From an uncultured delta proteobacterium (GTDB lineage: Bacteria > Desulfobacterota > Syntrophia > Syntrophales > UBA2185): a stretch of 64,000 nucleotides of DNA. Positions 854-22,922 of the stretch are shown here, piece by piece. How positions within the stretch are numbered: the stretch's first letter is position 1; the number at the start of each line of letters is the position of its first letter. Location: contig CAVSPA010000005.1 in NCBI GenBank assembly GCA_963729715.1, positions 608,001-672,000 of the forward strand, written 5' to 3'. The notes under the pieces were generated by a model. That model searched no databases. It saw only the letters and a list, made by a program, of their open reading frames with translations, and was not told where the DNA came from. A program made the position numbers and the translations under genes.

Positions 854-2320
854 TCAATGTATGGCGCCGGTTTCTTTATTGAAATTAGATGTGTCTTTCT
901 TGTCTTGGTCCGAGGCAATTCTCTTGTCCGCCTCTATGACCCAGCCGCCGCCTACCGCCTTGTAAAGGTTCACGAGGGCTTGGAAGAGAACTCCTGCTGT
1001 CCGCGCCCGGGCAAGTTCTGCGTCGAAAAGGCTGCGCTCCGCATCGAGCACCTCGATATAGCTCGTGTAGCCGTTTTCAAATCTCAGACGTGCGAAGCGA
1101 GAATAGGTACGTAGAGATTCTACCTGCCGCGTCTGGATATCAAGTTCTTCCCGTGATCTCCTCTGATCAATAAGGGCGTCTTCGACTTCGCGAAAGGCCG
1201 TCTGGATGGATTGCTGATACTGAATGAGGGCCTGCCGCTGTATCGCCTCGGCTGCTTCGACCTGTCCGGCAATGGCGCCTGCTGTGAAGATCGGTATATT
1301 CAGGGGAACGTTCCAGCTCCAGGCTCTCGATGGACCCTGGAAGAGTGTTGAGAGGTCATTGCTCGCGAATCCATACGTGCCGGTGAGAGAGATCGTAGGA
1401 AAGTAGAGTGCCCGCGCCACACCGATTCTCGCATTGGCCGCAATCAGGGTCTGTTCCGCCTGACGTATGTCCGGCCGTTTGGCGAGGAGCTCTGAAGGCA
1501 GGCCCGCCGGTACGGCGGGAAGGACAAGGTCATCGATCTTTCTTCCACGGGGAATAGGACCCGGATTTCGTCCGAGAAGCACGGAGAGGGCATTTTCTTG
1601 CTGGGCAATGGCCTTTTCGAGAAACGGGATTATCGCTAGGGCCTGTTCATAATTTGATTTAACCTGACTCAGTTCGAGTTCGGAGATGACGCCGCCCCGG
1701 AAGCGCAACTGGAAAAGGTCATAAGTTTCCTTACGGCTCTGTACGGTGCGTTTGGCAATCTCAAGCTGTTTGTCAAGGTCGCTGAGGTTTACATAGGAGC
1801 TTGCCACAGAGGTTATAAGAATCAAGATAACGCCCCTTCGCCCCTCTTCCTGACTCAGGATATCGGCACGGGACGCCTCTTTTGCCCTCCTCAGCTTTCC
1901 CCACAGGTCAATCTCCCAGGTCGCATACAAGGTGGCGGAATAGTTGTCCGCAGGGTTTATAGTGGCTTCTGTGAGGGGAGTTTGGCTGTTATCCGTGGCC
2001 CTGCTTCTGCCCACAGCTGCTCCTGCACCCGCCTGGGGGAAGAGAGAGGCGCGGGTTATGCCGTACCGACCGGCAAACTCTTCAATACGCGCCGTGGCAA
2101 TCATGAGATCCTTATTCTCTTTCAATGCCGTTTGAATCAGTGTGTTCAGGACGGGATCGTTGAATTGCTCCCACCATGCGGCATTGCCGATCTCTCTTGC
2201 CTCTTTTTCTTCAAAGCGCCAGGATGCGGGTGTCTCCACAGCGGGCCTCCGGTAGTCCGGGCCCACCATGCAGCCGGCAAGGATGAGCGCCAGCAAAAAG
2301 GATAAAAGCATCTTACGCAT
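854..2320 (-). CDS. RND efflux outer membrane lipoprotein (NodT/OprM family)
   Basis: Lipobox LAGC followed by MVGPDY; WEIDLWG and [11 protein letters not shown] motifs; [10 protein letters not shown]-terminus. Confidence 0.95.
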
Positions 2321-5300
2321 GATCTCCTCCCTCGCTCTCCGGCTTCTCGTTATTCCTGCGTCTTTCCGTCATTTTGGCAACGACATAGAACGTCACCGGA
2401 ATCAGGAAGATAGCAATCAACGATGCGGCTGCAGTGCCGCCCATAACTGTGGTCCCCATGATTTGTCTTGCCACGGCCCCTGATCCTGTAGAGATGGCAA
2501 GGGGAAGCGTGCCGAAGAGAAATGCAAACGACGTCATGAGAATTGGCCGGAGCCTCAATCGGGATCCTTCGAGGGCGGCGTCCTCGAGAGATCTTCCCTG
2601 TTCATGACTGTTTTTTGCAAACTCGACAATCAGAATTGCGTTTTTCGCGGCCAGACCGATCAGCACGATCAGGCCGATCTGTGCATAGACGTTATTCACC
2701 TGGCCGCGGAGCCAGATTGCCGTGAAGGCGCCAAAAACAGCCACTGGCGTGCCGAGAACAACACTGACGGGTAGTGACCAGCTTTCGTACTGGGCCGCAA
2801 GAATGAGAAAAACGCAAAGCAGCGAGAACCCAAAGATGACCGTTGCCGGTATACCCTCTTGTGCTTTCTTCTCCTGGAAACTCATGCCTAGATAATCAAA
2901 ACCCATCTCCCGTGGCATGCTCTGGGCAAAGGCCTCTTGAAGTGCCTTCATGGCCTGGGCCGAACTGTAGCCGGGGTTGGCCATAGCGTTGATCTGTGCC
3001 GAACGGTACATATTGTACCGCATCGTAAATTCGGGTCCCATTCGTGATTCGATCGTCGTGACCGCCGAGAGAGGAACCGGGTCCCCCCGGTCGTTCCGCA
3101 CATAAAACTGTCCGACATCCTCCGCTTTGGTGCGGTAGGCGCCCTCCGCCTGAACGTAGACCTGCCATTGCCTTCCGAATCGGTTGAAGTAATTGATGAA
3201 ATAACCACCCATAAAAGCCTGGAGCGTTTGATACACCTCTTCGACGTCGATACCTTGCTTGAGCACCTTGTCCCGATCGACATTGATGAAAACCTGGGGC
3301 ACCGTCGGGAGGAAGGTCGTTCTCACTGAGGCAAGCTCCGGCCTCTTCTGTGCTACATCGAGGAACTTCTTGACATTCTCCGAGAGAAAATCGATGTCCT
3401 TGCCGGCACGGTCCTCAAGGATCATCGTTACACCACCGGCCGTCCCAATGCCTGGAATTGCGGGTGGAGAAAAGGCGAAGGCGGTGCATTGCGGAAGTTT
3501 GACCAACTCTCTGTTAAGCTGGGTCATAATCGCGTCATATTGCTGTTCCGGTGTTTTCCGATCCTTCCACGGCTTGAGGTTCACAAAGAAAAAAGCGCTG
3601 TAGGTGTTCTGCACAAGGCTGAGCAAGCTGATGCCGACGATAGTTTGATAATACTGAACACCGGGCGTCTTCGCGATGATTTTTTCTATCTCTTTGCAGG
3701 CCTCATCGGTGCGTTGCATTGAGGAGGCATTAGGCAACGATACATTGACAAACATGTACCCTTGATCCTCTTCCGGCAGAAATCCCGTGGGGATGCCTTT
3801 TCCGATCCCGGCGCAAAGAACCGTGATCCCTGCAAGGAATAGAAGACTGAGGGCACTCTTACGGATCAGGAGTCTGCAAAATCCCACATATCCTGTTGTG
3901 GCACGTCCGAACCAGTGGTTGAATAACCCGAAGAAGGAACCCAAGGGGCCCCGTGCCTCTTTCCGGGGCTTGAGGAGAAGAGCGGCAAGGGCGGGACTGA
4001 GACTCAAGGCGTTGAAGGCCGATATGAGGACTGAAATGGCAATGGTTGCCGCAAATTGCTGGTAAAGCCTGCCCGTAATTCCCGGGATGAACACCGTGGG
4101 GATAAAGACCGCCGAGAGCACCAAGGCAATAGCCATGACTGGGCCGGAAACCTCCTGCATGGCCTTGAATGCGGCATCTTTGGGGGGCATACCCTCCTCA
4201 ATATGACGTTCAACGCACTCCACAACGACAATGGCATCGTCAACGACCAGGCCGATGGCGAGCACCAGGCCGAAGAGAGACAGGGTGTTAATTGAGAAGC
4301 CGAGAAGAGGAAAGAAGGCAAAGGTGCCGACGAGGGAAACCGGAACGGCGATGGTCGGAATAAGGGTCGGCCTCCAGCCTTGAAGGAAGATGAAGACGAC
4401 GACAATGACCAGCACCAATGCGATCAAAAGCGTCTTGACAATTTCATGGATACCTTCGGTAATAGCCCGCGTCGTATCAAGACCGACTACATAATCGAGA
4501 CCAGCCGGGAATTGCATCTTAGCCTGTTCCATAACTCTCCTGACACCGTTGGCTGTTTCGATGGCATTCGTACCGGGCAACTGATAGATACCGAGATTGG
4601 CGGCAGGTTTTCCGTTCAGACGCCCCCTGAACGTATAAACCTGCGAGCCCATTTCAATGCGGGCCACATCATTTAGGCGAACAATAGATCCATCGGAATT
4701 GGCCCGCAGAACGATCTGGCCGAATTCTTCCGGCGTGATCAGACGGCCTTGGGCTCTGACGGAATAGGTGAACTCCTGGCCCGGAGGCGCGGGTTCAGAA
4801 CCGATCTGCCCTGCCGGATTAACTGCATTCTGCTTCTGGACGGCATCGATGACCTGGGGAACAGTTATTGCGAGCTTCGCCAGCACATCGGGTTTGACCC
4901 AGATACGGATCGCATACATGCCGGAACCCCAGACTGTGGCCATGCCGACGCCTGGCACGCGCAGCAGTTGATCGACTAGGTTGATGTAGGCATAGTTCGC
5001 CAGAAATTTGGCGTCAAGGGACTCGTTGGGTGAATACACGGAAAGGATCATCAGAGGGGCGGACCGGGCCTTCTGGACCGTGACGCCATAATTACGCACG
5101 TCCTGGGGAAGCTGAGGCTGAGAAAGATTCTGCCGGATCTGGGTGAGCACCAGGTCCGTATTTGGACTGGTCGCAACATCGAAGCTGGTCGTCAGGCGCA
5201 TGGTACCATTATTGGCATTGAGGGAGTACATGTAATTCATGTTATCCACGCCGCTCAGCTGCTGCTCGATGGGGGTCGCCACGGACTGTTCGACAGTCTG

Positions 5301-5462
5301 GGCATCCGCACCTGTATACGTCGTATAGATCTGAATTTCAGGAGGCACGATCTCCGGGAACTGGGCAATGGGCAGACCTACCAGCGCCACTATGCCCACG
5401 ATGATGAACATAATGGAAATTACCATGGCAACAATAGGACGATTGATGAAGAACTTAGACAT
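2313..5462 (-). CDS. RND multidrug efflux permease (HAE1, AcrB family)
   Basis: 1049 aa; MSKFFINRP start; [31 protein letters not shown]. Confidence 0.97.
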
Positions 5463-5468
5463 AACGGC

Positions 5469-6677
5469 CTACTTTTGCGCCGGCCCGGATTGCACCGATT
5501 TCTGTTGTTCGGCGCTCGAGGCGTTGCCATTGGCGGATGGTACGTAAGGCTGCGGATTGACGATCATGTCCTGCTTTACCTTCTGGAACCCTTCCACGAC
5601 CACTTTATCTCCCTGCTTAAGCCCCTCGTCAATCACCCAGAGGCTGTCGATTCGTTCAGCAGGTTTTACCGATCTTATATCGATTTTATTACCGGGGCCT
5701 ACAACGGCCACCTGATAGCCACCCTGAAGTTCTGTCACTGCTCGCTGGGGTATCAGCAATGCGTTTTCCTTAATTTTACTTCTGGCACGGACCCTGGCAA
5801 ATTGTCCAGGTCGAATAACATTTCCGGGATTGTTGAAAAAGGCCGCGAGCTTTATAGTGCCTGTCTTCACATCCACCTGACGGTCAGCAAGGGCAAAGTA
5901 TCCTTTATATGGATGGACGAGGCCTGACGATAGAATCAATTCCAGGGGCATGTTCTTGAAACTGGGCCCGCCGTTTCCGACAATCTTGAGGTACTCCTGT
6001 TCACCGACGGATACATAGACCTTAATAGGATCAAGGGTTGATACCGTCGTAAGTTCCTCGATCAATCCGGGACCGACGAGATTCCCGATCTGGGTCTTGG
6101 CAATGCCGGCGATGCCATCAACGGGAGAGGTAATCTTCGTAAAGCCGACGTCCAGCGTTGTTTTTTCAACAACTGCTTGTGCCGAAATCACGGCCGCATG
6201 CGCTCCCTGTTCACTGCCCACAGCGTCGTCCAGGTCTTTTTTACTGATGGCATTCTGTTCTGCCAAGGGTGCGATCCTGGCAAGATTCGCCTTGGCAGTT
6301 ACCCAGCGTGCCTGCTGTTCCTCCAGTTGCCCCTTCGCCTGATCCAAGGCGGCCTGGAATGGACGCGGATCAATCTCAAAGAGTATCTGTCCCTTCCTGA
6401 CAAAATCGCCTTCACGGTAATGCTGCTTGATCAAATAGCCCTGTACCTGGGCCCGAATTGTGGCATTGACCTTACCATCCGTTATGCCGATCCATTCTGT
6501 ATATGCGGGGACGTTCTGCCGACCAACCTGTGCTACTTGCACCATGGGCGGAGAGGAATCCCTCTCCTTTTCTCCTTTACCGCAACCAACCATGAGGAAA
6601 AAGACCAGACTCATGGCAGCGATGGAAACCGATACGGCCAGTCGTAGAAATATCACACCGTTGTCCTTTCTTGTCAT
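5469..6677 (-). CDS. RND efflux periplasmic adaptor (MFP)
   Basis: IRAQVQGYL, LFEIDPRPF, TKITSPVDG, PGQFARV motifs; operon position. Confidence 0.95.
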   Translation of the reverse strand: MTRKDNGVIFLRLAVSVSIAAMSLVFFLMVGCGKGEKERDSSPPMVQVAQVGRQNVPAYTEWIGITDGKVNATIRAQVQGYLIKQHYREGDFVRKGQILFEIDPRPFQAALDQAKGQLEEQQARWVTAKANLARIAPLAEQNAISKKDLDDAVGSEQGAHAAVISAQAVVEKTTLDVGFTKITSPVDGIAGIAKTQIGNLVGPGLIEELTTVSTLDPIKVYVSVGEQEYLKIVGNGGPSFKNMPLELILSSGLVHPYKGYFALADRQVDVKTGTIKLAAFFNNPGNVIRPGQFARVRARSKIKENALLIPQRAVTELQGGYQVAVVGPGNKIDIRSVKPAERIDSLWVIDEGLKQGDKVVVEGFQKVKQDMIVNPQPYVPSANGNASSAEQQKSVQSGPAQK

Positions 6678-6823
6678 AGAAATACCCCTTTGCTCTTGCC
6701 TCAGTGTCGCGGAGAACAGATGAATACATGATCTCCAGCATCAAACCATCTGCGGATTTGTATGGATCAACGACTCCCCCGAGAGATTTCCTTCCGGAAT
6801 AGTCAAGGAAAGACGCCAATCGT

Positions 6824-7447
6824 TCATTCCGTCAACTCCAGTCCCACCCCTTTGAGAAAGATGTCCGAGACAAAGCCCACCTTACCACTCAAAGGTGCAT
6901 CCTGATTTGTAAGCATCCAGTAATAAAAGAATGACCGGATGATGCCCAAGAGTGTATAAGCCATCATGCGCGAATCCCCGGCCTTCAACGTTCTTGTCTC
7001 CATCCCGAAGCGCATGATGCTTTCCACAAAAGAGACGTGGTTAAAATAGTCCGCTATAAGTTTGTCCCTCAAAATTGTCCCCTTATCCGAGAGTGTCAAA
7101 CCTTCTCCGCGTATAAGAAGGTCGCAGAAAGCGACATTGTTTTCTACGAAATGAAAATGTGATCCCACCAGCTTCTCGATCTTACCCGTCAGTTCTTCTT
7201 CCACGTTTACGGCGTCTCTGATTTCGGAATACATCCTATCAATCTTCTCGCTCACCATGACATTGTACAGGCTTTCCTTGCCCTCAAAGAACTGATACAG
7301 AGTGCCCGTGGCAAAGCCTGATGCGCTGGCAATCTCTGCCATAGTCGTATTATGGAACCCTTTTGCAGCAAATATCTTTTCTGCCTGACTGAGAATCTCC
7401 GTCCTCCGGAGTTGAAATTCCATCTCTTTTCTTTTTGATTTTTCCAT
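6824..7447 (-). CDS. TetR/AcrR family transcriptional regulator
   Basis: N-terminal HTH FAAKGFHNTTMAEIA...GTLYQFFEGKESL; heads the efflux operon; ATG at 7447 preferred over TTG at 7465. Confidence 0.93.
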   Translation of the reverse strand: MEKSKRKEMEFQLRRTEILSQAEKIFAAKGFHNTTMAEIASASGFATGTLYQFFEGKESLYNVMVSEKIDRMYSEIRDAVNVEEELTGKIEKLVGSHFHFVENNVAFCDLLIRGEGLTLSDKGTILRDKLIADYFNHVSFVESIMRFGMETRTLKAGDSRMMAYTLLGIIRSFFYYWMLTNQDAPLSGKVGFVSDIFLKGVGLELTE

Positions 7448-7802
7448 AACAGAACTTTTATTCAAATATTATAATATGCGTTCAAATAGTGAATTGGCGT
7501 TCAGTAATTATATAATTTGTATTATTTGTCAAGAAAAAAGCCTATATCTGTTGAGATTGTAATTTGAAGCCACCATGCCGATCAGTCGGCAAAAAAAGAA
7601 TGAAAATTATGGTTGAATCCTGCAGTGGGTACTGATGTCAGATTTTGTAATTACGGCAGTCAATGATTGACCGATTTTGAGAATTATGAAAGATTGCAAA
7701 CGGTAAAGCTCCCGCTGGGAAGCTAAGCTGTAAAAGGAGAAGACAAACTTCAACCTGTCGTATCGGCGGAAACATATCTACCCGACCCAGAATAAAAAAG
7801 CT

Positions 7803-8880: not shown

Positions 8881-9651
8881 ATGAGCTTACCGCTGCGCAG
8901 AACAGGACTGAACAGAGAGACGCCTTTTTTCTTCTCATGCTCTCAGTGTCTTCGTTGCTGCCACCACAAGAAAATCCAGGTCAACCCCTACGAAATCGCG
9001 CGCCTTGCTGCGAACCGGCGCCTGTCCACTGCCGAATTCATCGAACGCTACACACACGAAAGCGGAACCATTCTGAATTGGGAAGAAGACGGCGCCTGCG
9101 TCTTCCTCGATTCCCAGGGTTGCGGGGTCCATCCTGACCGTCCTCTTGTCTGTCGTCTTTACCCTCTCGGCCGCCATGTCCTTCCCTCGGGAGAGGAGAG
9201 TTTCTCCGAGATCGAGCCGAATGAGGACTGCAAGGGCGTCTATGGCGATGACGGCATGATCACGGCGTATCTCGACTCGCAGGGCGCCCGCCCTTTCATG
9301 GAAGCCGCCGACAGGTATCTCGATCTCTTCTGGAGGCTTTGCCTGATACTGGAAGAAGAGGCGGCTGAGCCCGAGAAACAAAGCGCCATCATGAGCGTGT
9401 TTAAGAAGTTTGCCGGCGGTGAACGCAACGGTGACATCGGGTTTGCCGATGTGGATGCCATAGTAGCCGCCTTCTGCGAAAAACTATGTATATCGGTACC
9501 GGAGAGTACTGACGACAAAATGTCGATCCACATACAGGCTGTTGAAGCCTGGGCAAATAACTCAGGGAGGAGACAAAAACATGAAGCAAAAAAAAAGAAA
9601 CGAACCGCCACAAAAGGATCCGGGAAAAAGCCCCTTAAGGCAAGCCATTAG
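8881..9651 (+). CDS. YkgJ/UPF0153 (FliB-related) CxxCxxCC cysteine-cluster protein
   Basis: FSCSQCLRCC...CVFLDSQGCGVHPDRPLVCRLYP motif set; 3' end overlaps the next gene by 71 nt. Confidence 0.88.
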   Translation: MSLPLRRTGLNRETPFFFSCSQCLRCCHHKKIQVNPYEIARLAANRRLSTAEFIERYTHESGTILNWEEDGACVFLDSQGCGVHPDRPLVCRLYPLGRHVLPSGEESFSEIEPNEDCKGVYGDDGMITAYLDSQGARPFMEAADRYLDLFWRLCLILEEEAAEPEKQSAIMSVFKKFAGGERNGDIGFADVDAIVAAFCEKLCISVPESTDDKMSIHIQAVEAWANNSGRRQKHEAKKKKRTATKGSGKKPLKASH

Positions 9652-10162
9652 TGTCGCCACCGTTGTTGCCTCACTTGGAGCTTCCCTCGGCGTCAGCGTT
9701 ACTGACTTGATTGCCGCAGACCAGAAGGGCCCCATTCGCAATGAAGCGGTACAGCATAAAGATGCGGCGTCATGGGATTGGGGAAATATAAACGCAAACC
9801 AGTGGAAGCTCTCCGACCAGATCAAAACGCTCGAGGCATCTCAGTTCAAATTTTGGAACCAGGTCAAAGGGGAGTCACGGCAGGGAAAGATCAACATAAG
9901 GCAGTACAAGGAACTACAGGCAAACGAATACAAACTTGCAGACCAGATCAAGGATTTGCGGGCAAGCGATTACAATCTGTCGAACCAGTTTAAGTTCTGG
10001 CGGTCGAACATGCATAAGGGTGATCAGGCAGACCAGCTCAAAATCGACGGCCTCGAATCAAACGAACTGAAGATCGCAAACCAGCTCAAGATCCTGGAAG
10101 CCAACCAGCTCAAGATCTCAGAGCAGATGAAGATACTTCAGTCGAATCAGGATAAGCGCTGA
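9581..10162 (+). CDS. Exported QxK-repeat protein (193 aa), function unknown
   Basis: GGAGG RBS at 9566-9570, ATG at 9581; basic N-terminus plus hydrophobic AISVATVVASLGASLGVSV segment; about 18 [S/A][N/D]QxK units. Confidence 0.8.
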   Translation: MKQKKRNEPPQKDPGKSPLRQAISVATVVASLGASLGVSVTDLIAADQKGPIRNEAVQHKDAASWDWGNINANQWKLSDQIKTLEASQFKFWNQVKGESRQGKINIRQYKELQANEYKLADQIKDLRASDYNLSNQFKFWRSNMHKGDQADQLKIDGLESNELKIANQLKILEANQLKISEQMKILQSNQDKR

Positions 10163-10194
10163 GTATAGATGAGGATACGTATCGGTAAGAAACA

Positions 10195-10225
10195 AAACCC
10201 CGCCCATCAAAAGTGGGCGGGGTTT
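10195..10225. terminator. Likely bidirectional intrinsic terminator
   Basis: AAACCCCGCCCA-7 nt-TGGGCGGGGTTT between convergent genes. Confidence 0.85.
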
Positions 10226-10259
10226 CTAAAATTAATTTCTGTTGCGGCGTAAGGACCCA

Positions 10260-10964
10260 TCACTTCGGCTTCTTCCAGAATGGGCCGGTCTTACCGATTT
10301 CTTTCATGCCTTGAACCATCTCACGGGCGTATTCATGTATGTGTGACAGATAGTCCTTATCCATCCGCCGCCTGAAGAAAGGCCCGGAGAATAGTTTGCG
10401 TAATTGCTCCAGTGACAGGATGCCCTCGTCGGTGCCTTGGACAAAGGACTTCCAGTTGCGGACATGCTCTTCCGACCGGAAGAGATTCATCGTGCTTCAG
10501 GCATAGCCCGGATCTTCAAACCATTTCCAGAAGGGCACGGCTACATAGGCCGTGTATCCTGAGGCTTCGGCATTCAAAATGACCCCGTCCCGGATGACCA
10601 CACGGAGCGGCGCGCCGCAGTCCAAACAGGGGAAATCCACCGTCACCGCCTTGCCAGGGAATAGCCAGCAGACCGCCAGCGATTCGAATGCTCACTGGCC
10701 GAACCATTTCTGCTGACCGTCGATGGTGATCCGGTATTGGGTTGGAAGATTGTTGAAGGGAGCGAAGGAGACGATGTGGTCCGTGCGGGGATACAGCCAC
10801 GAAGGGATTCCCGAGGAGAACAGGTCGTGCATGACCTTCCGGCCTTCCTCAACGGGAAGCCCGAATTCTTGGGCAAGTTCCGTGTAAAAGGGCGCCTGCC
10901 CGGTTTCTACCATGCGTTTCATGATGATGTGAAACGCCTTCTCCAGCATTGGGGGTGCGCTCAT
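10260..10964 (-). CDS. merB: MerB-like (organomercurial lyase fold) selenoprotein, 234 aa, with two Sec residues (U91, U156)
   Basis: Track ORFs 10692..10964 and 10260..10490 are in one frame, interrupted only by TGA at 10692-10694 and 10497-10499. Read-through gives KWFGQ-U-AFESLAV...PCLDCGAPLRVVI...DPGYA-U-STMNLFRSEEH, matching the MerB WCALD, CxxxG and FC..VHFF motifs; a hairpin follows each UGA. Confidence 0.88.
10464..10490 (-). promoter_or_regulatory. Putative bacterial SECIS for MerB U156
   Basis: UGA-agcacg-AUG-aau-CUCUUCC-GGUC-GGAAGAG-CAU; perfect 7-bp upper stem, loop starts 19 nt after the UGA. Confidence 0.75.
10659..10685 (-). promoter_or_regulatory. Putative bacterial SECIS for MerB U91
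   Basis: UGA-gcauuc-GAAU-c-GCUGGC-GGUCU-GCUGGC-u-AUUC (G-U pairs included); loop starts 17 nt after the UGA. Confidence 0.65.
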
Positions 10965-11021
10965 GGTATTTCCTCCTTTATAATTCTGTTTTTCAAATTC
11001 CCTATTCAGATGAAAGTCTAT

Positions 11022-11579
11022 CTACACGTCCTTCATAAACTCAATTGACGTCATACTTTTGAAAAGAGGATAAAGCGGGTTGTTGCGGTACAGGTTCAAT
11101 GTCGTTTCATGAATTTCCCTGGTGAAGGCGGCGCAGCAGTCTTCGAGGATATAGGCCTGGAAATCGTTAGACAAGGCGTCAAGGGCGGTTACGAGGACAC
11201 ACCAGTGCGTGCTTATGCCGCAGATTGCAACCGTGTCCACTCCGTGCAGTCTGAGAATCTGATCCATGTCCGTCTTGTAGAAGGCGCTGAACCTGCGCTT
11301 GGGACTGTAAATATCCGTCGGAGCCTGAATCAAGAGCTCCGTTACCTCCGCATCTGTTGTCCCGCGAATGGAGCGCTCTTTCATCTTTCCACCGAAGATG
11401 AAGTCTCCTTTCAAAAAACTGTCCATGGAAAAAATCACCGGGATGGACTTGCGGCGGGCAAATTCGGTAAGACGGTTGATATTTGGGCAGACGGCACGGG
11501 CAAGTGGGGTAATCGGAAAGCCCGGTTCAACTTCCAATGAGTCTTTAAGCATGTCGACGATAACAATTGCAGGTTTCAT
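11022..11579 (-). CDS. Isochorismatase-family cysteine hydrolase
   Basis: AIVIVDM, KRRFSAFYKT and GISTHWCV give the Asp-Lys-Cys triad. Confidence 0.92.
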   Translation of the reverse strand: MKPAIVIVDMLKDSLEVEPGFPITPLARAVCPNINRLTEFARRKSIPVIFSMDSFLKGDFIFGGKMKERSIRGTTDAEVTELLIQAPTDIYSPKRRFSAFYKTDMDQILRLHGVDTVAICGISTHWCVLVTALDALSNDFQAYILEDCCAAFTREIHETTLNLYRNNPLYPLFKSMTSIEFMKDV

Positions 11580-11597
11580 TCACATCTCCGCCAAAAT

Positions 11598-11630
11598 AAA
11601 AAGAGGCAAGTAATAACGCCTTGCCTCTTT
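11598..11630 (-). terminator. Intrinsic terminator after the AbfD-like gene
   Basis: Minus strand: AAAGAGGCAAG-9 nt-CTTGCCTCTTT continuing into TTATTTT. Confidence 0.7.
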
Positions 11631-11652
11631 CTTCTTCGTTTGATCTCCTTGA

Positions 11653-13104
11653 TTATTCTTCCTTCATGCCCATGAGCTTCTTGGCCATCTTCTTCTTAGC
11701 GTCAAAGTCCGTGAGCACGGAGATCATGAACCGCTGTGTCTGAGGGGCGCCGGCGCCGTGCCAGGTTCCCGTGCCATGCAGACCGGCTGACCAGTGCTGG
11801 AGGAACTTTGCGACCTTAAGGCGCTTGTCCGCCGGGGCTGCAGCCGCGAAAGCCTTTTTCAGCATGGGCCCGACCTCCGGGTCTTCCAGGTCCTTTTGCC
11901 TCGGCATGGTTACCACCAGGCCGCCACCGATATCTCCGGCGTTCTTGATGATTTCCCAGAATCCGTGGGCGATGTTCAGCTTGGCGGCATTGCCGAAGAG
12001 ATCGTCCGGAAGGAAGACGCCGGATCCCCTGGGTTCTTCCCTTCCCCGCATGGCTGCCGCGATAGCGCAGGCGTGGGACGTCTCGCTGAAGCGTACCATA
12101 TCAATGATCTTCTCCTGGATGTGAGGGACCTTGTCCACACCGGTGTATTCGGCGGCAAGCACGGTGCCTCCGATAACCAGGTCGGCGAATCCCACCTTGC
12201 AGGCGCCGCCGCAATTCATGCGGTGGGCCTTGGCGAACCGGGTAACCATTTTCCCGCAGAACTTGGTCTCGCCGCAGAGGAAAACTCGCTCCCAGGGAAT
12301 GAAGACATTGTCAAAAACCATCGTCGACGTTTCCCTCTGTCCGAAGACGGGATTCCCAATCTCGGCTTCGTCTTCACAAAATTCACGCTCCGCCGAGTAG
12401 GCATTGTATTGGCAGATGTATGTAAGCCCCGGTACGCTGTTTTGTACCGCAAAGGCCAGGGCAAAGGCCTCTTCGCCTTCTCTCAGGGCGCCTCCCGGCA
12501 GAACAAGTGTTTCATGCGAGCCTATGGCGCCGCTCTGGCTCACCTTGATCCCGCGTACTACGATTCCATCGTCACGTTTTTCAACAAGGTGAACGAATGT
12601 ATCGGGTTCGTCCTGCTGGGAAGGCCTCTTTTTCCTGTCTCCTTTTGCATCGGTTATCGCGCCGGAGACTGCGAGGTCGTTGGCCTGGGCGAATGCAAGC
12701 CATTTGTTAAATCTTTCATTATATTTCGTTTTCAAATCCCGGTCCATCTCCCACGTCGTAGAGGCGAGGCTGTTGAGTGCATCGCAACCCACGCAGCGGT
12801 AATTGCAGGTACCCACCGTCTGGCTCGTCAAGAGGGCCATCTCCTGCCGCATGTCGAGGTCGTGGATATTGCGTGCCACGTTAAGGTTGCGGTTGATCGC
12901 TTCCCCCGTCAGGTGCGATGTAGCGACCATGATTCCCTTGTATTTCGGGTCTTCAGCGAGCTCGTAAATCGCCGCGTTGGCCATAACCATGGAACGCGTA
13001 ATTTTGTTGTTGAGCAGATTCTTCACCCATTTACCCCCGCAATAGACGCGGGGCGACAGCTTCTTCATACTGTCCAGATATTCCTTTGCAGTCTTTAAAG
13101 CCAT
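11653..13104 (-). CDS. Divergent 4-hydroxybutyryl-CoA dehydratase/HpaB-family flavo-Fe-S protein
   Basis: CNYRCVGCD, TDAKGDR, HRMNCGGACK and WHGAGAPQ motifs; colinear with the paralog at 21471. Confidence 0.88.
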   Translation of the reverse strand: MALKTAKEYLDSMKKLSPRVYCGGKWVKNLLNNKITRSMVMANAAIYELAEDPKYKGIMVATSHLTGEAINRNLNVARNIHDLDMRQEMALLTSQTVGTCNYRCVGCDALNSLASTTWEMDRDLKTKYNERFNKWLAFAQANDLAVSGAITDAKGDRKKRPSQQDEPDTFVHLVEKRDDGIVVRGIKVSQSGAIGSHETLVLPGGALREGEEAFALAFAVQNSVPGLTYICQYNAYSAEREFCEDEAEIGNPVFGQRETSTMVFDNVFIPWERVFLCGETKFCGKMVTRFAKAHRMNCGGACKVGFADLVIGGTVLAAEYTGVDKVPHIQEKIIDMVRFSETSHACAIAAAMRGREEPRGSGVFLPDDLFGNAAKLNIAHGFWEIIKNAGDIGGGLVVTMPRQKDLEDPEVGPMLKKAFAAAAPADKRLKVAKFLQHWSAGLHGTGTWHGAGAPQTQRFMISVLTDFDAKKKMAKKLMGMKEE

Positions 13105-13122
13105 AATATCCTCCGGATTAGT

Positions 13123-13443
13123 TTATTCTTTAGACTTGATGTCTATTATATATTTCGCCTTTCCGGTACCGGGAAAGGCCCCTATATTCTCTAAGGCAAT
13201 GTCCATGATTTCCATCAATTCGGTCTCGCTTCTCTTTCCGGATAATACGAGCAGCATGCCTTTTTCCTTCAGTCGAGCTTCAGCAATGAGACCCTTTTCC
13301 TGAAAACCCGGTATGAACTTCTTGTCAAGACAGCAATACATAAAACTCGCGAATGTGCCGCCCAGACCACTGTAGCTTCCCTGCATCTCGCGTCCGATCT
13401 TGACAGCTATCACTTCCAATCCCGCATCGTTCTCTAACGCCAA
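13123..13443 (-). CDS. Hypothetical protein (106 aa, YCC motif)
   Basis: Fills the gap between operon genes; GAGAGGGA RBS before TTG. Confidence 0.6.
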   Translation of the reverse strand: MALENDAGLEVIAVKIGREMQGSYSGLGGTFASFMYCCLDKKFIPGFQEKGLIAEARLKEKGMLLVLSGKRSETELMEIMDIALENIGAFPGTGKAKYIIDIKSKE

Positions 13444-13509
13444 CTTTGATCCCTCTCACCACTATTGAGACTTATTCGTTCTGGAAATTTCTTCCAAGGC
13501 CTTCCCGAT

Positions 13510-14844
13510 TTACATCTTTCCCCTGAGAGACTGGGCCGCGATGTGGATGGCGTCCCAGGCGCCTCCGAAGGGCGGCGCGTATGGAAGATCAAGGTAGCCG
13601 ACCTCATCCACGGAGAGTCCTGCCCATAGGGCGACAGAAAGGCTGCTGATTCGTTGAACGGCCCCTTTCTCACCGATGCACTGCCCGCCGAGAAGTTTTC
13701 CCGTCTTCTTGTCTCCGACAAGTTTCACGCCCATCTTCTCCCCTTTAGCCATGGGACGGCCAACGGGAAGACCCCAGATCATGGTGCTCACCGGCTGGAA
13801 TCCATATTTTGCGGCTTCCTCCTCCGTAAGTCCGGTGGCAGCCACCTCCAGTTTGAATACCTTGAAGGCCTGAGCACCCACGACACCCGGAAACTCCGCC
13901 GGGTAACCGCCGATGTTTTGACCGGCAACACGGCCCTGCTTGTTGGCAACATCGCCGAGGGGAAAATAGACCCACCGGCCGGCGACTTTGTGAAATACCT
14001 CACAGCAGTCTCCCACTGCGTAAACCCCTTCCCGGGATGTCTTCTGCCGGAGATCCACCGTGATGGCGCCACTTTCCCCTAAGGCAATTCCCATGGATTC
14101 GGCAAGCGCGGCATTCCGCTTTGTTCCCACTCCCATCAGCACGAGATCGGCATCCAGCTCGCCGCCGCTGGTATGAAGATTCAACCTGTATTCCTTCCCT
14201 TTTTCAATCGATAGAGGCTTCGTCTCCGGAAGGAATTCCACCTGGTTCTTGGCCAGCTCTTCCACTATCATCTTCGTGAATTCGGCATCCCACCGTACGG
14301 CCGGCCGGGGCAGGATGTCCATGACCTTCACTTCAATTCCCAGGCTTCGGAGCGCCTCACACATCTCCATACCGATATAGCCCGCACCGATCAGAACCGC
14401 TTTCCTGCAGCTCTTTTCGTTCAGGTAGGATTTCATCTTCAAGGCGTCGCTCAAGTCTCTGAAGACATAGACGCCGTCCATGTCTTTGCCCGGAATATCC
14501 AGGCGGATCGCTTCGGCCCCTGTCGCCATGACCAGGAAGTCGTAAGGAAGACTCGTGCCGTCTGATAACGAGAGAGATCCCTTTTGAGGATCGACACTGT
14601 CCACGCGCGTCTTGATTTTTACGTCGATGCCCGTTTTCTTGAATTCTTCCGGCGTACGGATGACGAGCCTCTTTGACTCTTTGATTACATCACCGATGTA
14701 ATAAGGCATCGGTCAGGCCGCATAGGAAACAAAGTCACCCTTCTCAATCATCGTCACTTCCAGAGAAGGGTTTCTTCTTTTGGCCTCGGCAGCCGAAGAC
14801 GGGCCTGCCGCCCCGCCTCCCACTATAACCAGTTTTTGACCCAT
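13510..14844 (-). CDS. CoA-disulfide reductase/NADH oxidase-family selenoprotein, 444 aa, U44
   Basis: The track ORF lacks the FAD-binding N-terminus. In-frame upstream ATG at 14844 (GGAGG RBS) gives MGQKLVIVGGGAAG...FVSYAA-U-PMPYYIG, with TGA at 14713-14715 at the catalytic Cys site; GAGYIG and YAPPF motifs present. Confidence 0.92.
14684..14702 (-). promoter_or_regulatory. Putative bacterial SECIS for U44
   Basis: UGA-ccgaugccuu-AUUACAUC-GGU-GAUGUAAU; perfect 8-bp stem, loop starts 18 nt after the UGA. Confidence 0.78.
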
Positions 14845-14909
14845 TTAATGTCCTCCACAGTTATCAATTTAATTGTATACTGTCCGTTTCAAGCCTTCTC
14901 CTGATTACA

Positions 14910-15452
14910 TCAATCCTTGAGGTTTTCCACGTTTTCACTGAAGGGCTTCGACGCCAGTTCATCCTTGTCGGATAGTACTAGGTCCGCCGCAATCCCGGCT
15001 GCATCAGTAATGACCTCACGGCAGTACAGCGCGTGTTCCCTGCACAGCCAGGTGCTCTGCCATGGCACCGTCAATTCCCTGCACAGGGTCTTTCCGTATT
15101 TCGCCTTGAAGCGGTTGGGGACCACATTGAATATCCTGTAAACACCGGGCTTCCCGTACAACTGGGCCTTCGACTTCATCGCCACATCCTTTTGATCCGC
15201 TCCTTCAGGGAGTGATGCCCTGCCGTGGACGGCGCTCACGGCCATTACCGCCCCTGCCAGGGCGCCGCAGGTGTCTCCGAAAAGCCCTATGCCGCCGCCA
15301 AACCCGGTTGCGACCTTTTTGACTGCCGGAGGCAATCCTGTATCCACCAGGGTTAGAACCGCTTCAGTGACGCATTCCGCACAATTATACCCTAAAGAAA
15401 AATTCTTGCGGGCACGCTGACGGATTTCCTCGATTTTCTCCTCTTTTGTCAT
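14910..15452 (-). CDS. C-GCAxxG-C-C family putative redox-active protein
   Basis: YNCAE, GFGGGIG, TCGALAG, LCREL and C-terminal Cys motifs. Confidence 0.9.
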   Translation of the reverse strand: MTKEEKIEEIRQRARKNFSLGYNCAECVTEAVLTLVDTGLPPAVKKVATGFGGGIGLFGDTCGALAGAVMAVSAVHGRASLPEGADQKDVAMKSKAQLYGKPGVYRIFNVVPNRFKAKYGKTLCRELTVPWQSTWLCREHALYCREVITDAAGIAADLVLSDKDELASKPFSENVENLKD

Positions 15453-15581
15453 TGATCCTTCCTCCTTTTTTAAGAAATCTTTCTAAGACTTTTGTCTCAG
15501 CACATTACCGCGTTAGTCGTCTCCCCTTAGAGGCTGTCTACGCGTCTCAACGCGAAATATCAATACTGAAAAACTGCGCAT

Positions 15582-21470: not shown

Positions 21471-22922
21471 ATGGCACTAAAGACACCTGAACAATATGAA
21501 GAGAGTCTGCGCAAGATGAATTTTAAGATCTACCTGATGGGTGAGCGGGTGGAAAATCCCGTGGACCATCCGATCATCAGGCCTTCGATGAATTCGGTAA
21601 AGATGACATACGCCCTGGCCCAGAATCCCGAGCATGAAGATTTGATGACGGCGACATCTCACCTCTCAGGAAAGAAGATCAACCGTTTCTGCCACTTGCA
21701 CCGGAACACCGAGGATCTGATAAAGAAGGTGAAGATGCAGAGGCTTTTGGGGCAGAAAACGGGGGCCTGTTTTCAGCGCTGCGTGGGCATGGATGCGATC
21801 AATGCCGTGGACAGCGTCACCTTCGAGATGGATATGAAGCTCGGCACCAAATACCACGAGCGATTCATCAAGTTCCTCTCGATGATGCAGGAAGAAGACC
21901 TCACTGTGGATGGCGCCATGACGGACCCCAAGGGTGACCGTAGCCTGACGCCCGGCAAACAGGCAGACCCTGATCTATATACGCGCGTGGTGGAAAGAAG
22001 AAAAGACGGCATTGTCGTCCGGGGCGCGAAGGCCCACCAGACGGGGGCAATCAATTCCCACTGGATTCTTGTCATGCCGACGATGACCATGGCAAAGGAG
22101 GACAGCGATTATGCCCTTTCCTTTGTGGCGCCTGCCGACGCGAAGGGCATATTTTACATTTACGGCCGCCAGTCCTGTGACACGCGGAAACTCGAAGGCG
22201 GTGAAATCGACGTGGGGAATAAAGAATTCGGTGGGCACGAGGCCTTGATGGTCTTTGACAATCTCTTTGTCCCCTGGGAAAATGTCTTCATGTGCGGCGA
22301 ATACGAATACAGCGGCGCCCTGGTGGAAAGGTTTGCCGGGTATCATCGTCAGAGTTACGGCGGCTGCAAGGTCGGCGTGGGCGACGTGCTCATTGGCGCG
22401 GCGGCACTGGCTGCAGATTACAACGGCGCGGCCAAGGCATCCCACGTCAAGGACAAGCTGATCGAAATGATGCACCTCAATGAGACCCTTTACGCCTGCG
22501 GGATCGCGTGTTCGGCGGAAGGACACGAGACGGCATCCGGAAACTATCTGATCGATCTCCTCCTTGCCAATGTCTGCAAACAGAATGTTACGCGTCTCCC
22601 CTACGAGATCGCGCGGCTTGCAGAGGATATAGCGGGTGGGTTGATGGTCACCATGGCCTCGGAGCAGGACCTGCGGCACCCTGAAATCGGCAAGGTAGTG
22701 GAAAAATATTTCAAAGGTGTTGCGTCGGTACCTACCGAGCATCGCTGCCGCGTGCTCCGATTGATTGAAAACGTCACGCTCGGGACGGCGGCGGTGGGAT
22801 ACCGCACCGAATCCATGCATGGCGCCGGCTCACCGCAGGCGCAAAGGATTATGATCTCACGGCAGGGCAATCTCGATTACAAAAAGAGGCTGGCTAAAGA
22901 AATCGCCGGAATCAAAGATTGA
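21471..22922 (+). CDS. abfD: 4-hydroxybutyryl-CoA dehydratase/vinylacetyl-CoA isomerase
   Basis: Canonical CFQRCVGMD, TDPKGDR, GGHEA, HRQSYGGCK and TESMHGAGSPQAQ motifs. Confidence 0.9.
   Translation: MALKTPEQYEESLRKMNFKIYLMGERVENPVDHPIIRPSMNSVKMTYALAQNPEHEDLMTATSHLSGKKINRFCHLHRNTEDLIKKVKMQRLLGQKTGACFQRCVGMDAINAVDSVTFEMDMKLGTKYHERFIKFLSMMQEEDLTVDGAMTDPKGDRSLTPGKQADPDLYTRVVERRKDGIVVRGAKAHQTGAINSHWILVMPTMTMAKEDSDYALSFVAPADAKGIFYIYGRQSCDTRKLEGGEIDVGNKEFGGHEALMVFDNLFVPWENVFMCGEYEYSGALVERFAGYHRQSYGGCKVGVGDVLIGAAALAADYNGAAKASHVKDKLIEMMHLNETLYACGIACSAEGHETASGNYLIDLLLANVCKQNVTRLPYEIARLAEDIAGGLMVTMASEQDLRHPEIGKVVEKYFKGVASVPTEHRCRVLRLIENVTLGTAAVGYRTESMHGAGSPQAQRIMISRQGNLDYKKRLAKEIAGIKD

Follow-up and report, generated by a model that had tools for sequence, protein, structure and literature searches.

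To our knowledge, no characterised enzyme other than MerB cleaves the bond between mercury and carbon, and MerB uses two cysteines to do so. The table of a 2026 review, in the part of that source available to us, covers 119 selenoprotein families, including those of Haft and Tolstoy 2025, and has one MerB-type entry, SaoL, with the motif CU and one selenocysteine (Sec, U); no form of MerB with two Sec residues appears in it. In the accessible portion of its preprint SaoL is presented as the MerB-like lyase belonging to the SAO (selenocysteine-assisted organometallic) system, where it marks a nine-gene locus with ATP-binding cassette (ABC) transporter selenoproteins, and its single Sec lies in the CU dipeptide at the column of MerB Cys159, with Cys and Asp kept at the columns of Cys96 and Asp99 (Haft and Gwadz, 10.1101/2022.07.06.499078). 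Here we describe a MerB-like gene at positions 10260-10964, on the minus strand, of a stretch of 64,000 nucleotides (the window) from an uncultured delta proteobacterium of the Syntrophales (assembly GCA_963729715.1, contig CAVSPA010000005.1, positions 608,001 to 672,000). Judged from its sequence and that of its relatives, the gene very probably encodes a MerB-fold protein with Sec at residues 91 and 156, each UGA being recoded by its own in-frame selenocysteine insertion sequence (SECIS) through SelB, tRNA-Sec, SelA and SelD.

Full-text literature searches with MerB and selenoprotein terms returned as relevant only the SaoL preprint and two reviews. A supplementary table of Peng et al. 2016, in the portion accessible to us, has an entry 'Organic mercuric lyase MerB2' with 17 selenoproteins from 17 organisms; it gives no sequences or Sec positions, and SaoL and a two-Sec family are not distinguishable in it. 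The word 'MerB' is absent from the main text and four supplements of Zhang and Gladyshev 2008, which reviews cite for a 'MerB-like' selenoprotein, and MerB is not mentioned in the BSepDB paper.

A MerB-like frame with two internal TGA codons

The original prediction held that two short open reading frames belong to one frame of 234 codons, interrupted by TGA at codons 91 and 156 and nowhere else, and MerB-like in the 64 codons between them. This was borne out by the reverse-complement translation, in which the two TGAs are the only internal stops, the 64 codons between them (AFESLAV...PCLDCGAPLRVVI) are free of stops, and the second TGA follows 65 residues after the first. The features of the gene, all on the minus strand and each with the evidence for it, are:

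10260-10964: whole gene of the predicted two-Sec MerB-fold protein, 234 codons plus the terminal TGA (translation; Pfam MerB; AlphaFold2 and PDB matches)
10972-10978: ribosome-binding site AAGGAGG, 7 nucleotides 5' of the ATG (read from the sequence)
10962-10964: start codon ATG (translation)
10692-10694: UGA-1, codon 91, predicted Sec in the column of MerB Cys96 (alignment; TGA conservation; Cys in other members)
10683-10685: Glu94 codon, in the column where MerB has its proton donor Asp99 (alignment; invariant in the family alignment)
10664-10680: SECIS-like hairpin 1, stem GCUGGC/GCUGGC of 6 base pairs, loop GGUCU, with the loop G 17 nucleotides past UGA-1 (pairing; synonymous constraint)
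10617-10628: CLDC motif, Cys113-x-x-Cys116 (invariant columns; MerB alignment)
10497-10499: UGA-2, codon 156, predicted Sec in the column of MerB Cys159 (alignment; TGA conservation; Cys in 2 homologs)
10467-10484: SECIS-like hairpin 2, stem CUCUUCC/GGAAGAG of 7 base pairs, loop GGUC, with the loop G 19 nucleotides past UGA-2 (pairing; compensatory changes; synonymous constraint)
10260-10262: true stop, TGA in this copy (homologs stop at the same place)
10194-10226: hairpin resembling an intrinsic terminator, 13 pairs followed by a T-run, beginning 34 nucleotides past the stop (sequence)

The predicted protein matches the Pfam MerB family PF03243 with 66 bits against a gathering cutoff of 27, over residues 72-190 and profile positions 3-119 of 126, and in a six-frame search of the source genome with PF03243 the gene (49.4 bits) was the only one with a MerB domain. 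In phmmer alignments with MerB and MerB2 proteins of solved structure, the first catalytic Cys is matched by codon 91 (gqCAf against awCAl) and the second by codon 156 (gyaCst against sfCSh or gtCkq), and Glu94 stands in the column of Asp99, so that the match to Cys96 and Cys159 with Glu in place of Asp99, as originally predicted, held when it was aligned. For comparison across the family we scored columns in the 120 listed clusters of a protein search that found 225 relatives. An acid is kept at the Asp99 column in these homologs, Glu in 115 and Asp in 5, and in the family alignment C113, L114, D115, C116, G117 and Glu94 are invariant columns. Cys113 aligns to Cys117 of MerB, and Cys116 is an additional cysteine of this family.

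The fold points in the same direction. An AlphaFold2 model, built from an alignment of 22 sequences, reached a predicted local distance difference test score of 90.2 and a predicted template modelling score of 0.86, and a Foldseek search of the PDB with this model gave 11 matches at E <= 0.001, all of them MerB or MerB2, with template modelling scores of 0.49-0.68. Behind these, at E > 0.09, come winged-helix repressors, whose alignments cover the N-terminal 60-70 residues only. At the other end the protein carries a helical extension of about 25 residues, which ends in a conserved PFW.

Recoding of the two TGA codons

The source genome, 3.76 Mb in 19 contigs, has a complete Sec machinery, with all four components above their family cutoffs: tRNA-Sec (76.2 bits), SelB (387.7), SelA (606.7) and SelD (390.3). 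The SelD of this genome (contig C12:74564-75493, locus L018) is itself a selenoprotein with one in-frame TGA (...HGAGUACKIG...), which is common in selenoprotein-rich anaerobes.

The two TGA codons are a property of the family. When 401 genomes of the phylum were searched in six frames, 39 of them yielded strong matches, 44 in all (E <= 7e-40, identity 41-99%), and 41 of the 44 contain exactly two TGAs and no further stop; of the remaining three, one carries a third TGA, one a TAG in addition, and one a single TGA together with one TAA. When the columns were checked in 30 of the phylum loci, the first TGA was conserved in all 30 (motif GQU[AG]F) and the second in 29 (motif [AS]US[TR]M). In 51 loci from metagenomes, all relatives of a single family member, TGA was read in 49 of the 49 that extend to the first column and in 48 of the 48 that extend to the second. 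A collection of 185,579 species-representative genomes, which overlaps the phylum sample so that the two TGA counts are not independent, contains 334 relatives; codons were read in the best 80 of these, and both columns are TGA in 77 of the 77 loci that could be located by pattern, the other 3 of the 80 not being located. TGG was never seen at either column in the metagenome and species-representative loci. The true stop is TAA or TAG in 23 of 28 homologs of one set and in 54 of 76 species-representative homologs, the other 22 of the 76 ending in TGA as this gene does. Since the true stops are mostly TAA or TAG, the internal TGAs behave as a codon class separate from the terminator.

A second line of evidence comes from the residues that replace Sec in other members. 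At columns 91 and 156 the 120 clusters read:

Trp/Trp: 52 of 120, full length, on contigs of at most 2,713 bases
Cys91, protein ending exactly before 156: 60 of 120, with 150-157 residues
Cys91, alignment gap at 156: 3 of 120, nearly the same case, ending about one residue later
Cys/Cys: 2 of 120 (P0036 and P0050), full length
Ser/stop, Gly/stop and Trp/Leu: 3 of 120, oddities

Column 91 is accordingly Cys in 65 of the clusters and column 156 in 2. Because loci related to a Trp/Trp protein have TGA in both columns and never TGG, the Trp must be an artefact of gene calls made under a code in which TGA means Trp, and short contigs are presumably prone to gene calling with that code. The Trp/Trp entries (P0002-P0066) are stored in the protein collection, where anyone aligning the catalytic residues might be led astray by them. 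Two loci, L201 and L202, confirm the Cys/Sec form at the level of DNA, their frame reading through the TGA of codon 156 into the ...MNLFRSEEH...PFW C-terminus; for the other 58 clusters that end before 156 it is read from the position where the protein ends. Members with Cys91/Sec156 or Cys/Cys (e.g. L201, L202, P0036 and P0050) are 47-78% identical over the full length, and the Cys and Sec forms have the motifs GQ[C/U][AG]FE, [AS]U[ST]xMN.FRSEEH, PCLDCG and the C-terminal PFW in common. Cys91 forms are at least as common as Sec/Sec forms among the 120 clusters and extend to other phyla, the record titles naming a Proteobacteria metagenome-assembled genome (MAG) and a Methylomirabilota MAG. 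In a quick tree of residues 5-155 with column 91 masked, the Sec/Sec and Cys/Sec forms are interspersed, one clade of 38 rows contains 37 that are Cys/Sec, and the well-supported branches require at least 5-6 switches. It appears that column 156 is Sec nearly throughout the family and that at column 91 Cys and Sec have replaced each other several times, as expected of a functional chalcogen position.

A SECIS-like hairpin had been predicted after each TGA, and both hairpins are found to be constrained in pairing and in codon use. The strongest SECIS signal is the constraint on synonymous sites, which was read in 77 genes. After UGA-2, Phe is encoded by TTC in 76 of 77, Arg by CGG in 77 of 77, Ser by TCG in 77 of 77 and Glu by GAA in 75 of 76, and after UGA-1, Ser is encoded by TCG in 70 of 73, Leu by CTG in 71 of 77 and Cys by TGC in 69 of 69. 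Arg, Ser and Leu residues that are equally conserved outside the hairpins have three or four codons in free use (entropy 1.6-2.35 bits), and codon choice becomes free again from the first codon beyond each stem. The pairs of hairpin 1 are formed in 180 of 180 cells across 30 sequences, slid registers pairing in 12-62% of cells, and two of its pairs vary on one side only (U-G to C-G; G-U to A-U or G-C). Hairpin 2 is paired in 98.5% of 203 cells across 29 sequences and shows compensatory changes in two pairs (7 cells); its score was reached by none of 500 shuffles, and its slid registers pair in 47-61%.

The geometry is repeated elsewhere in the genome, where the UGA of SelD and that of a coenzyme A-disulfide-reductase-like (CoADR-like) gene in the window are each followed by a hairpin whose G-rich loop stands 20-24 nucleotides downstream. 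The CoADR-like hairpin, AUUACAUC-GGU-GAUGUAAU, was read by eye from the sequence and differs from the minimum-energy fold. The fdhF SECIS of E. coli has its GGUC loop at about the same distance from the UGA. No hairpin with a GGUC loop follows the terminal TGA (10260-10262) of the MerB-like gene. An Rfam scan of window positions 9500-15500 returned no SECIS family at E <= 1; its sole hit, 'rnk_pseudo' over the terminator, scored 30.5 bits against a threshold of 55 and was taken as chance.

Some of the observations count against recoding or soften the case for it. One homolog, L047 of genome G325, has GTA at column 156 and a TAA upstream, and looks like a decayed copy. Hairpin 1 shows no double (compensatory) change in the 30 sequences and its shuffle control was uninformative (477 of 500), so that its support comes from invariance and synonymous constraint. 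The alignment of hairpin 2 omits locus L037, in which the 3' arm is deleted, and thus counts 29 of the 30 genes. This locus (genome G246) has a deletion of 15 codons that removes the 3' arm together with the conserved SEEH segment, and it looks damaged. Finally, folding of the 60 nucleotides after each UGA in the single sequence was not significant against shuffles (z of +0.91 and -1.47), and the case for the hairpins therefore rests on the comparative data.

Could the gene be something other than a selenoprotein gene, namely a pseudogene in decay that has acquired two nonsense mutations, a product of faulty assembly, or a gene in which TGA is read as Trp? The public gene calls, which split the gene or put Trp at both columns in those 52 clusters, and the visible decay of L047 would fit such a view. 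We nevertheless consider it hardly credible, as the same two TGA columns are found in the readable loci of three collections, L047 excepted, while the protein is conserved down to 41% identity; TGG was never seen at either column, and the residue that homologs put there is Cys rather than Trp; this gene, like 22 of 76 homologs, has TGA as its ordinary stop too; and the full Sec machinery is present together with conserved SECIS hairpins. The original prediction had called it implausible that two random nonsense mutations should hit exactly these positions, and the recurrence of the TGAs in all readable related genes except decayed L047 agrees with that judgement. Its other safeguards gave the same answer: selA, selB, selC and selD are all present above cutoffs, the homologs have Cys rather than Trp, the Trp/Trp entries being a translation artefact of DNA that reads TGA, and the TGAs are not private to one assembly, since they occur in 41 of the 44 strong phylum matches (39 of 401 genomes), in metagenomes and in species representatives.

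Neighbourhood, mercury and candidate functions

Taking all the evidence together, we regard as the best explanation, and as a probable one, that the gene encodes a SECIS-recoded two-Sec enzyme of the MerB fold that acts as a carbon-metal lyase, perhaps on an organomercurial. In this mechanism a cytoplasmic MerB-fold enzyme would carry Sec91 and Sec156 in place of the metal-binding catalytic Cys residues and Glu94 in place of the proton-donating Asp. A SECIS with a GGUC apical loop about 20 nucleotides downstream of each UGA would be read by the SelB system of the genome, the two selenolates of the finished protein would grip the soft metal(loid) at the centre of an organometallic substrate, and the leaving carbon would receive its proton from Glu94. 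The parts of this explanation are not equally firm. That the protein is a carbon-metal lyase with a two-selenol active site, as suggested by its homology to MerB, we hold to be slightly better than an even proposition. As to the physiological substrate, the leading candidate from the genomic context is an organomercurial, for instance methylmercury, which an hgcA-carrying anaerobe would process with no mer operon, although we put it forward tentatively and with less than even confidence.

The MerB-like gene is the last of a string of genes on the minus strand which, according to a scan of the open reading frames of the window, runs 5' to 3' through a PAS-LuxR regulator, a putative redox protein with the motif C-GCAxxG-C-C, a CoADR-like selenoprotein, a protein of 106 residues of no known family, an HpaB-family protein and an isochorismatase-like hydrolase to the MerB-like gene and the terminator. 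The members with assigned positions, all on the minus strand, are:

13510-14844: CoADR-like selenoprotein, Sec44, 444 residues, TGA at 14713-14715 (read-through)
11653-13104: HpaB-family protein (4-hydroxyphenylacetate hydroxylase / 4-hydroxybutyryl-CoA dehydratase family)
11022-11579: isochorismatase-like hydrolase

The CoADR-like gene, a pyridine-nucleotide-disulfide oxidoreductase gene, is read through one TGA from the ATG at 14844 (...SYAAUPMPYY...), and the product matches coenzyme A-disulfide reductase models end to end with 381 bits, below the equivalog cutoff of 458. Its Sec44 presumably stands at the position of the active-site Cys of the coenzyme A-disulfide reductase family. That family is already recorded as a selenoprotein in the accessible part of the 2026 review. 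Elsewhere in the window a second HpaB-family paralog lies at 21471-22922 on the plus strand, with genes for an Fe-alcohol dehydrogenase, an acyl-CoA dehydrogenase and an OsmC-like protein, and a resistance-nodulation-division efflux set (outer-membrane factor, AcrB-type pump and membrane-fusion protein) with a TetR regulator occupies 854-7465 on the minus strand; the latter appears unrelated to the MerB-like gene.

An indirect link to mercury is offered by HgcA, which is encoded in the same genome (contig C5:493625-494614, locus L203) with 459.6 bits against a cutoff of 275 and no in-frame stop in the matched part, so that the source organism is a predicted mercury methylator. The HgcA gene lies about 125 kb from the MerB-like gene on the same contig. 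By a hand tally, HgcA is found above cutoff in 19 of the 39 genomes that carry the MerB-like gene and in 100 of the 362 that do not, a modest enrichment, and in two more carriers pieces of HgcA lie where contigs end.

Against a role in organomercurial cleavage several points must be set. The genomes are related, hence non-independent, and the HgcA comparison overstates the association; 20 of the 39 carriers have no HgcA above cutoff, and 100 of the 119 genomes with HgcA have no MerB-like gene. No mer gene was seen among the open reading frames scanned in window positions 1-25 kb, no search having been aimed at merR or merP, no MerA above cutoff was found in the genome (best score 344.5 against 454.45) and no MerT either, and the annotated neighbours of the MerB-like gene include no metal transporter. 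The neighbourhood is not conserved across 38 loci with flanking sequence, the trio of HpaB-like, CoADR-like and 106-residue proteins being present in 8 of them, and the commonest neighbours, the carbon-nitrogen (C-N) hydrolases amidase (5 of 38), isochorismatase-like (4 of 38) and Amidohydro_2 (about 3 of 38), no more point to metals than the trio does. Since it is not conserved, the context yields no firm substrate. Selenolates hold Hg(II) much more firmly than thiolates do, so that release of the product from a two-selenolate site could be slow and a binding role would fit as well as catalysis. Concerning the neighbours themselves, C-N hydrolases of the isochorismatase-like, amidase (PF01425) and Amidohydro_2 types are repeatedly found next to the MerB-like gene in different lineages (L101, L102, L104, L105, L108, L110, L112 and L115), and the copy from the same genus, L101, retains the isochorismatase-like neighbour only.

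Two other functions deserve to be weighed against the lyase. The MerB scaffold may have been turned to redox chemistry, with Sec91 and Sec156 cycling between selenols and a Se-Se bond, perhaps relayed by Cys113-x-x-Cys116, to reduce a small-molecule or protein substrate. Such a role would be in keeping with the majority of bacterial selenoproteins, which are thiol-type oxidoreductases according to the accessible part of the 2026 review, and with the invariant CLDC motif that canonical MerB lacks. It would also agree with the position of the gene downstream of, and on the same strand as, the CoADR-like selenoprotein with Sec44 and the C-GCAxxG-C-C putative redox protein, with a redoxin gene that adjoins the homologous locus L110, and with the failure of the MerA and MerT searches of the genome to find mer genes. 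We nonetheless think it unlikely, because the redox neighbours are present in only 8 of 38 loci and absent beside L101, the two Sec residues stand 65 residues apart, outside any CxxC-like redox motif and exactly on the metal ligands of MerB, and the acid of the triad is conserved in all 120 listed homologs.

The conserved acid bears equally on the proposal that the protein does not catalyse at all and is a soft-metal binder of very high affinity for Hg(II), methylmercury or another thiophilic metal(loid), serving as a sink or for hand-over in sulfidic habitats, for instance by buffering Hg around HgcAB. A mere binder would hardly keep an acid needed only for protonolysis, yet all 120 listed homologs have Glu or Asp there, a stoichiometric sink that costs two Sec insertions per molecule would be expensive, and the gene is unlinked to hgcAB at its distance of about 125 kb on the contig. 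We accordingly give this proposal a rather small chance, though a binder would explain why HgcA is encoded in a genome with no MerA above cutoff to take the product, would suit the enrichment of HgcA in carriers (19 of 39 against 100 of 362), and would turn to advantage the affinity of selenolates for Hg, which by general chemistry is far above that of thiolates and works against turnover. Binding of other metals has a precedent in MerB, whose active site accepts them and becomes a copper binder by one residue change, as stated in the available part of the SaoL preprint (10.1101/2022.07.06.499078).

Returning to the carbon-metal lyase, one may extend it to the family as a whole, as the enzyme by which anaerobic bacteria of sediment and peat would degrade methylmercury independently of mer; its two selenols would pull methylmercury off sulfide and thiols at environmental concentrations, and it would be carried by many of the HgcAB-containing Thermodesulfobacteriota that make methylmercury. 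This extension is speculative and we are inclined to doubt it. If true, the family would have been missed by surveys of mercury cycling because gene callers truncate it at the TGAs and the catalytic residues seem to be lacking.

Distribution and relation to MerB and SaoL

The family is spread over the 334 relatives among the 185,579 species representatives, the closest being 94% identical, and by their record titles almost all carriers are Thermodesulfobacteriota MAGs, namely Syntrophales, Syntrophaceae, Desulfomonilaceae, Desulfobacterales and Syntrophobacteraceae. It is present in many metagenomes from wetland, peat, soil and sediment; the runs that contain a fifth to a third of the sampled words of the window are soil and freshwater-sediment metagenomes, and wetland and peat runs contain smaller shares. 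Contigs from RNA libraries of four studies (X15, X16, X17 and X19) cover parts of the gene and span both TGA sites. These contigs are assembled and have 85-99% likeness, and among the differences listed none falls on a TGA codon; as DNA can occur in RNA libraries, they are at most weak evidence for transcription of family members. In the sources consulted, members go by no other name than 'hypothetical protein' or 'Alkylmercury lyase', and their clusters consist of fragments 49-156 residues long. As far as could be found, this is a second, widespread MerB-fold selenoprotein family, and its Sec/Sec form was not found described in the literature searched.

More distant MerB-like matches in the phylum, at 22-30% identity, contain one or two in-frame TGAs (G399:C1, G373:C24, G368:C22, G036:C171, G110:C1 and G083:C63) and may represent SaoL-type proteins or additional Sec-containing subfamilies of MerB. 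Other distant MerB-like matches, at 28-35% identity, have no in-frame TGA.

Replacement of both MerB ligands by Sec would give a natural two-selenol active site. Surveys of merB that screen for the catalytic residues would discard such genes, and one lake study, in its accessible part, dismisses its own merB homologs for missing catalytic residues (PMC11984097). Should methylmercury be the substrate, the gene would have a direct bearing on what sets the net methylmercury of anoxic habitats; should it be something else, the family would still offer a clean natural system for the effect of a second selenol.

Two known identities were tried for the protein and rejected on their profile scores. 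The equivalog model for canonical MerB, NCBIfam NF009710, gave 29.1 bits against a cutoff of 193, and the SaoL model, NF040728, gave 30.3 bits against 140 over residues 14-134 only; the protein reached no model of NCBIfam release 20. No ABC transporter or SAO-like gene was seen near the gene among the open reading frames scanned in window positions 1-25 kb, and the SaoC model had no match in the genome, the same model having matched no control genome either. By its sequence the protein thus appears to be neither canonical MerB nor SaoL. The original prediction was right to mention MerB-like selenoproteins of the SAO system, of which SaoL is one, and right that no mer genes lie nearby, as the scan of window positions 1-25 kb confirmed. 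Its interpretation of a two-Sec MerB-like protein is supported by the alignments, and from the kept active-site columns we infer that the reaction may be the protonolysis of a carbon-metal or carbon-chalcogen bond.

Compared with canonical MerB (EC 4.99.1.2; PDB 3F0P, 3F2F and 1S6L) and MerB2 (PDB 5C17), the protein would have the same fold over its full length (Foldseek E of 6e-10 to 4e-6). It places its two chalcogen ligands and its acid at the same positions as canonical MerB, at about 20% sequence identity. The Cys/Asp/Cys of canonical MerB corresponds here to a predicted Sec/Glu/Sec, which would be analogous chemically while not being the defining residues, and Cys116 and the C-terminal extension are additions, the CLDC motif being absent from canonical MerB. 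Unlike canonical MerB, the two-Sec gene is chromosomal and found in strict-anaerobe lineages.

The likeness to SaoL, as far as SaoL is documented in the available part of its preprint, is of another kind. Both would be MerB-fold selenoproteins of anaerobes that match PF03243 and have Sec at the Cys159 column, both lie outside the mer resistance operon and are usually truncated at a TGA in database entries, and for both the substrate is possibly not mercury. The protein described here would differ from SaoL in having Sec at both columns, in having Ala or Ser before the second Sec (Ala-Sec at 155-156 in this copy), and in using Glu as the acid.

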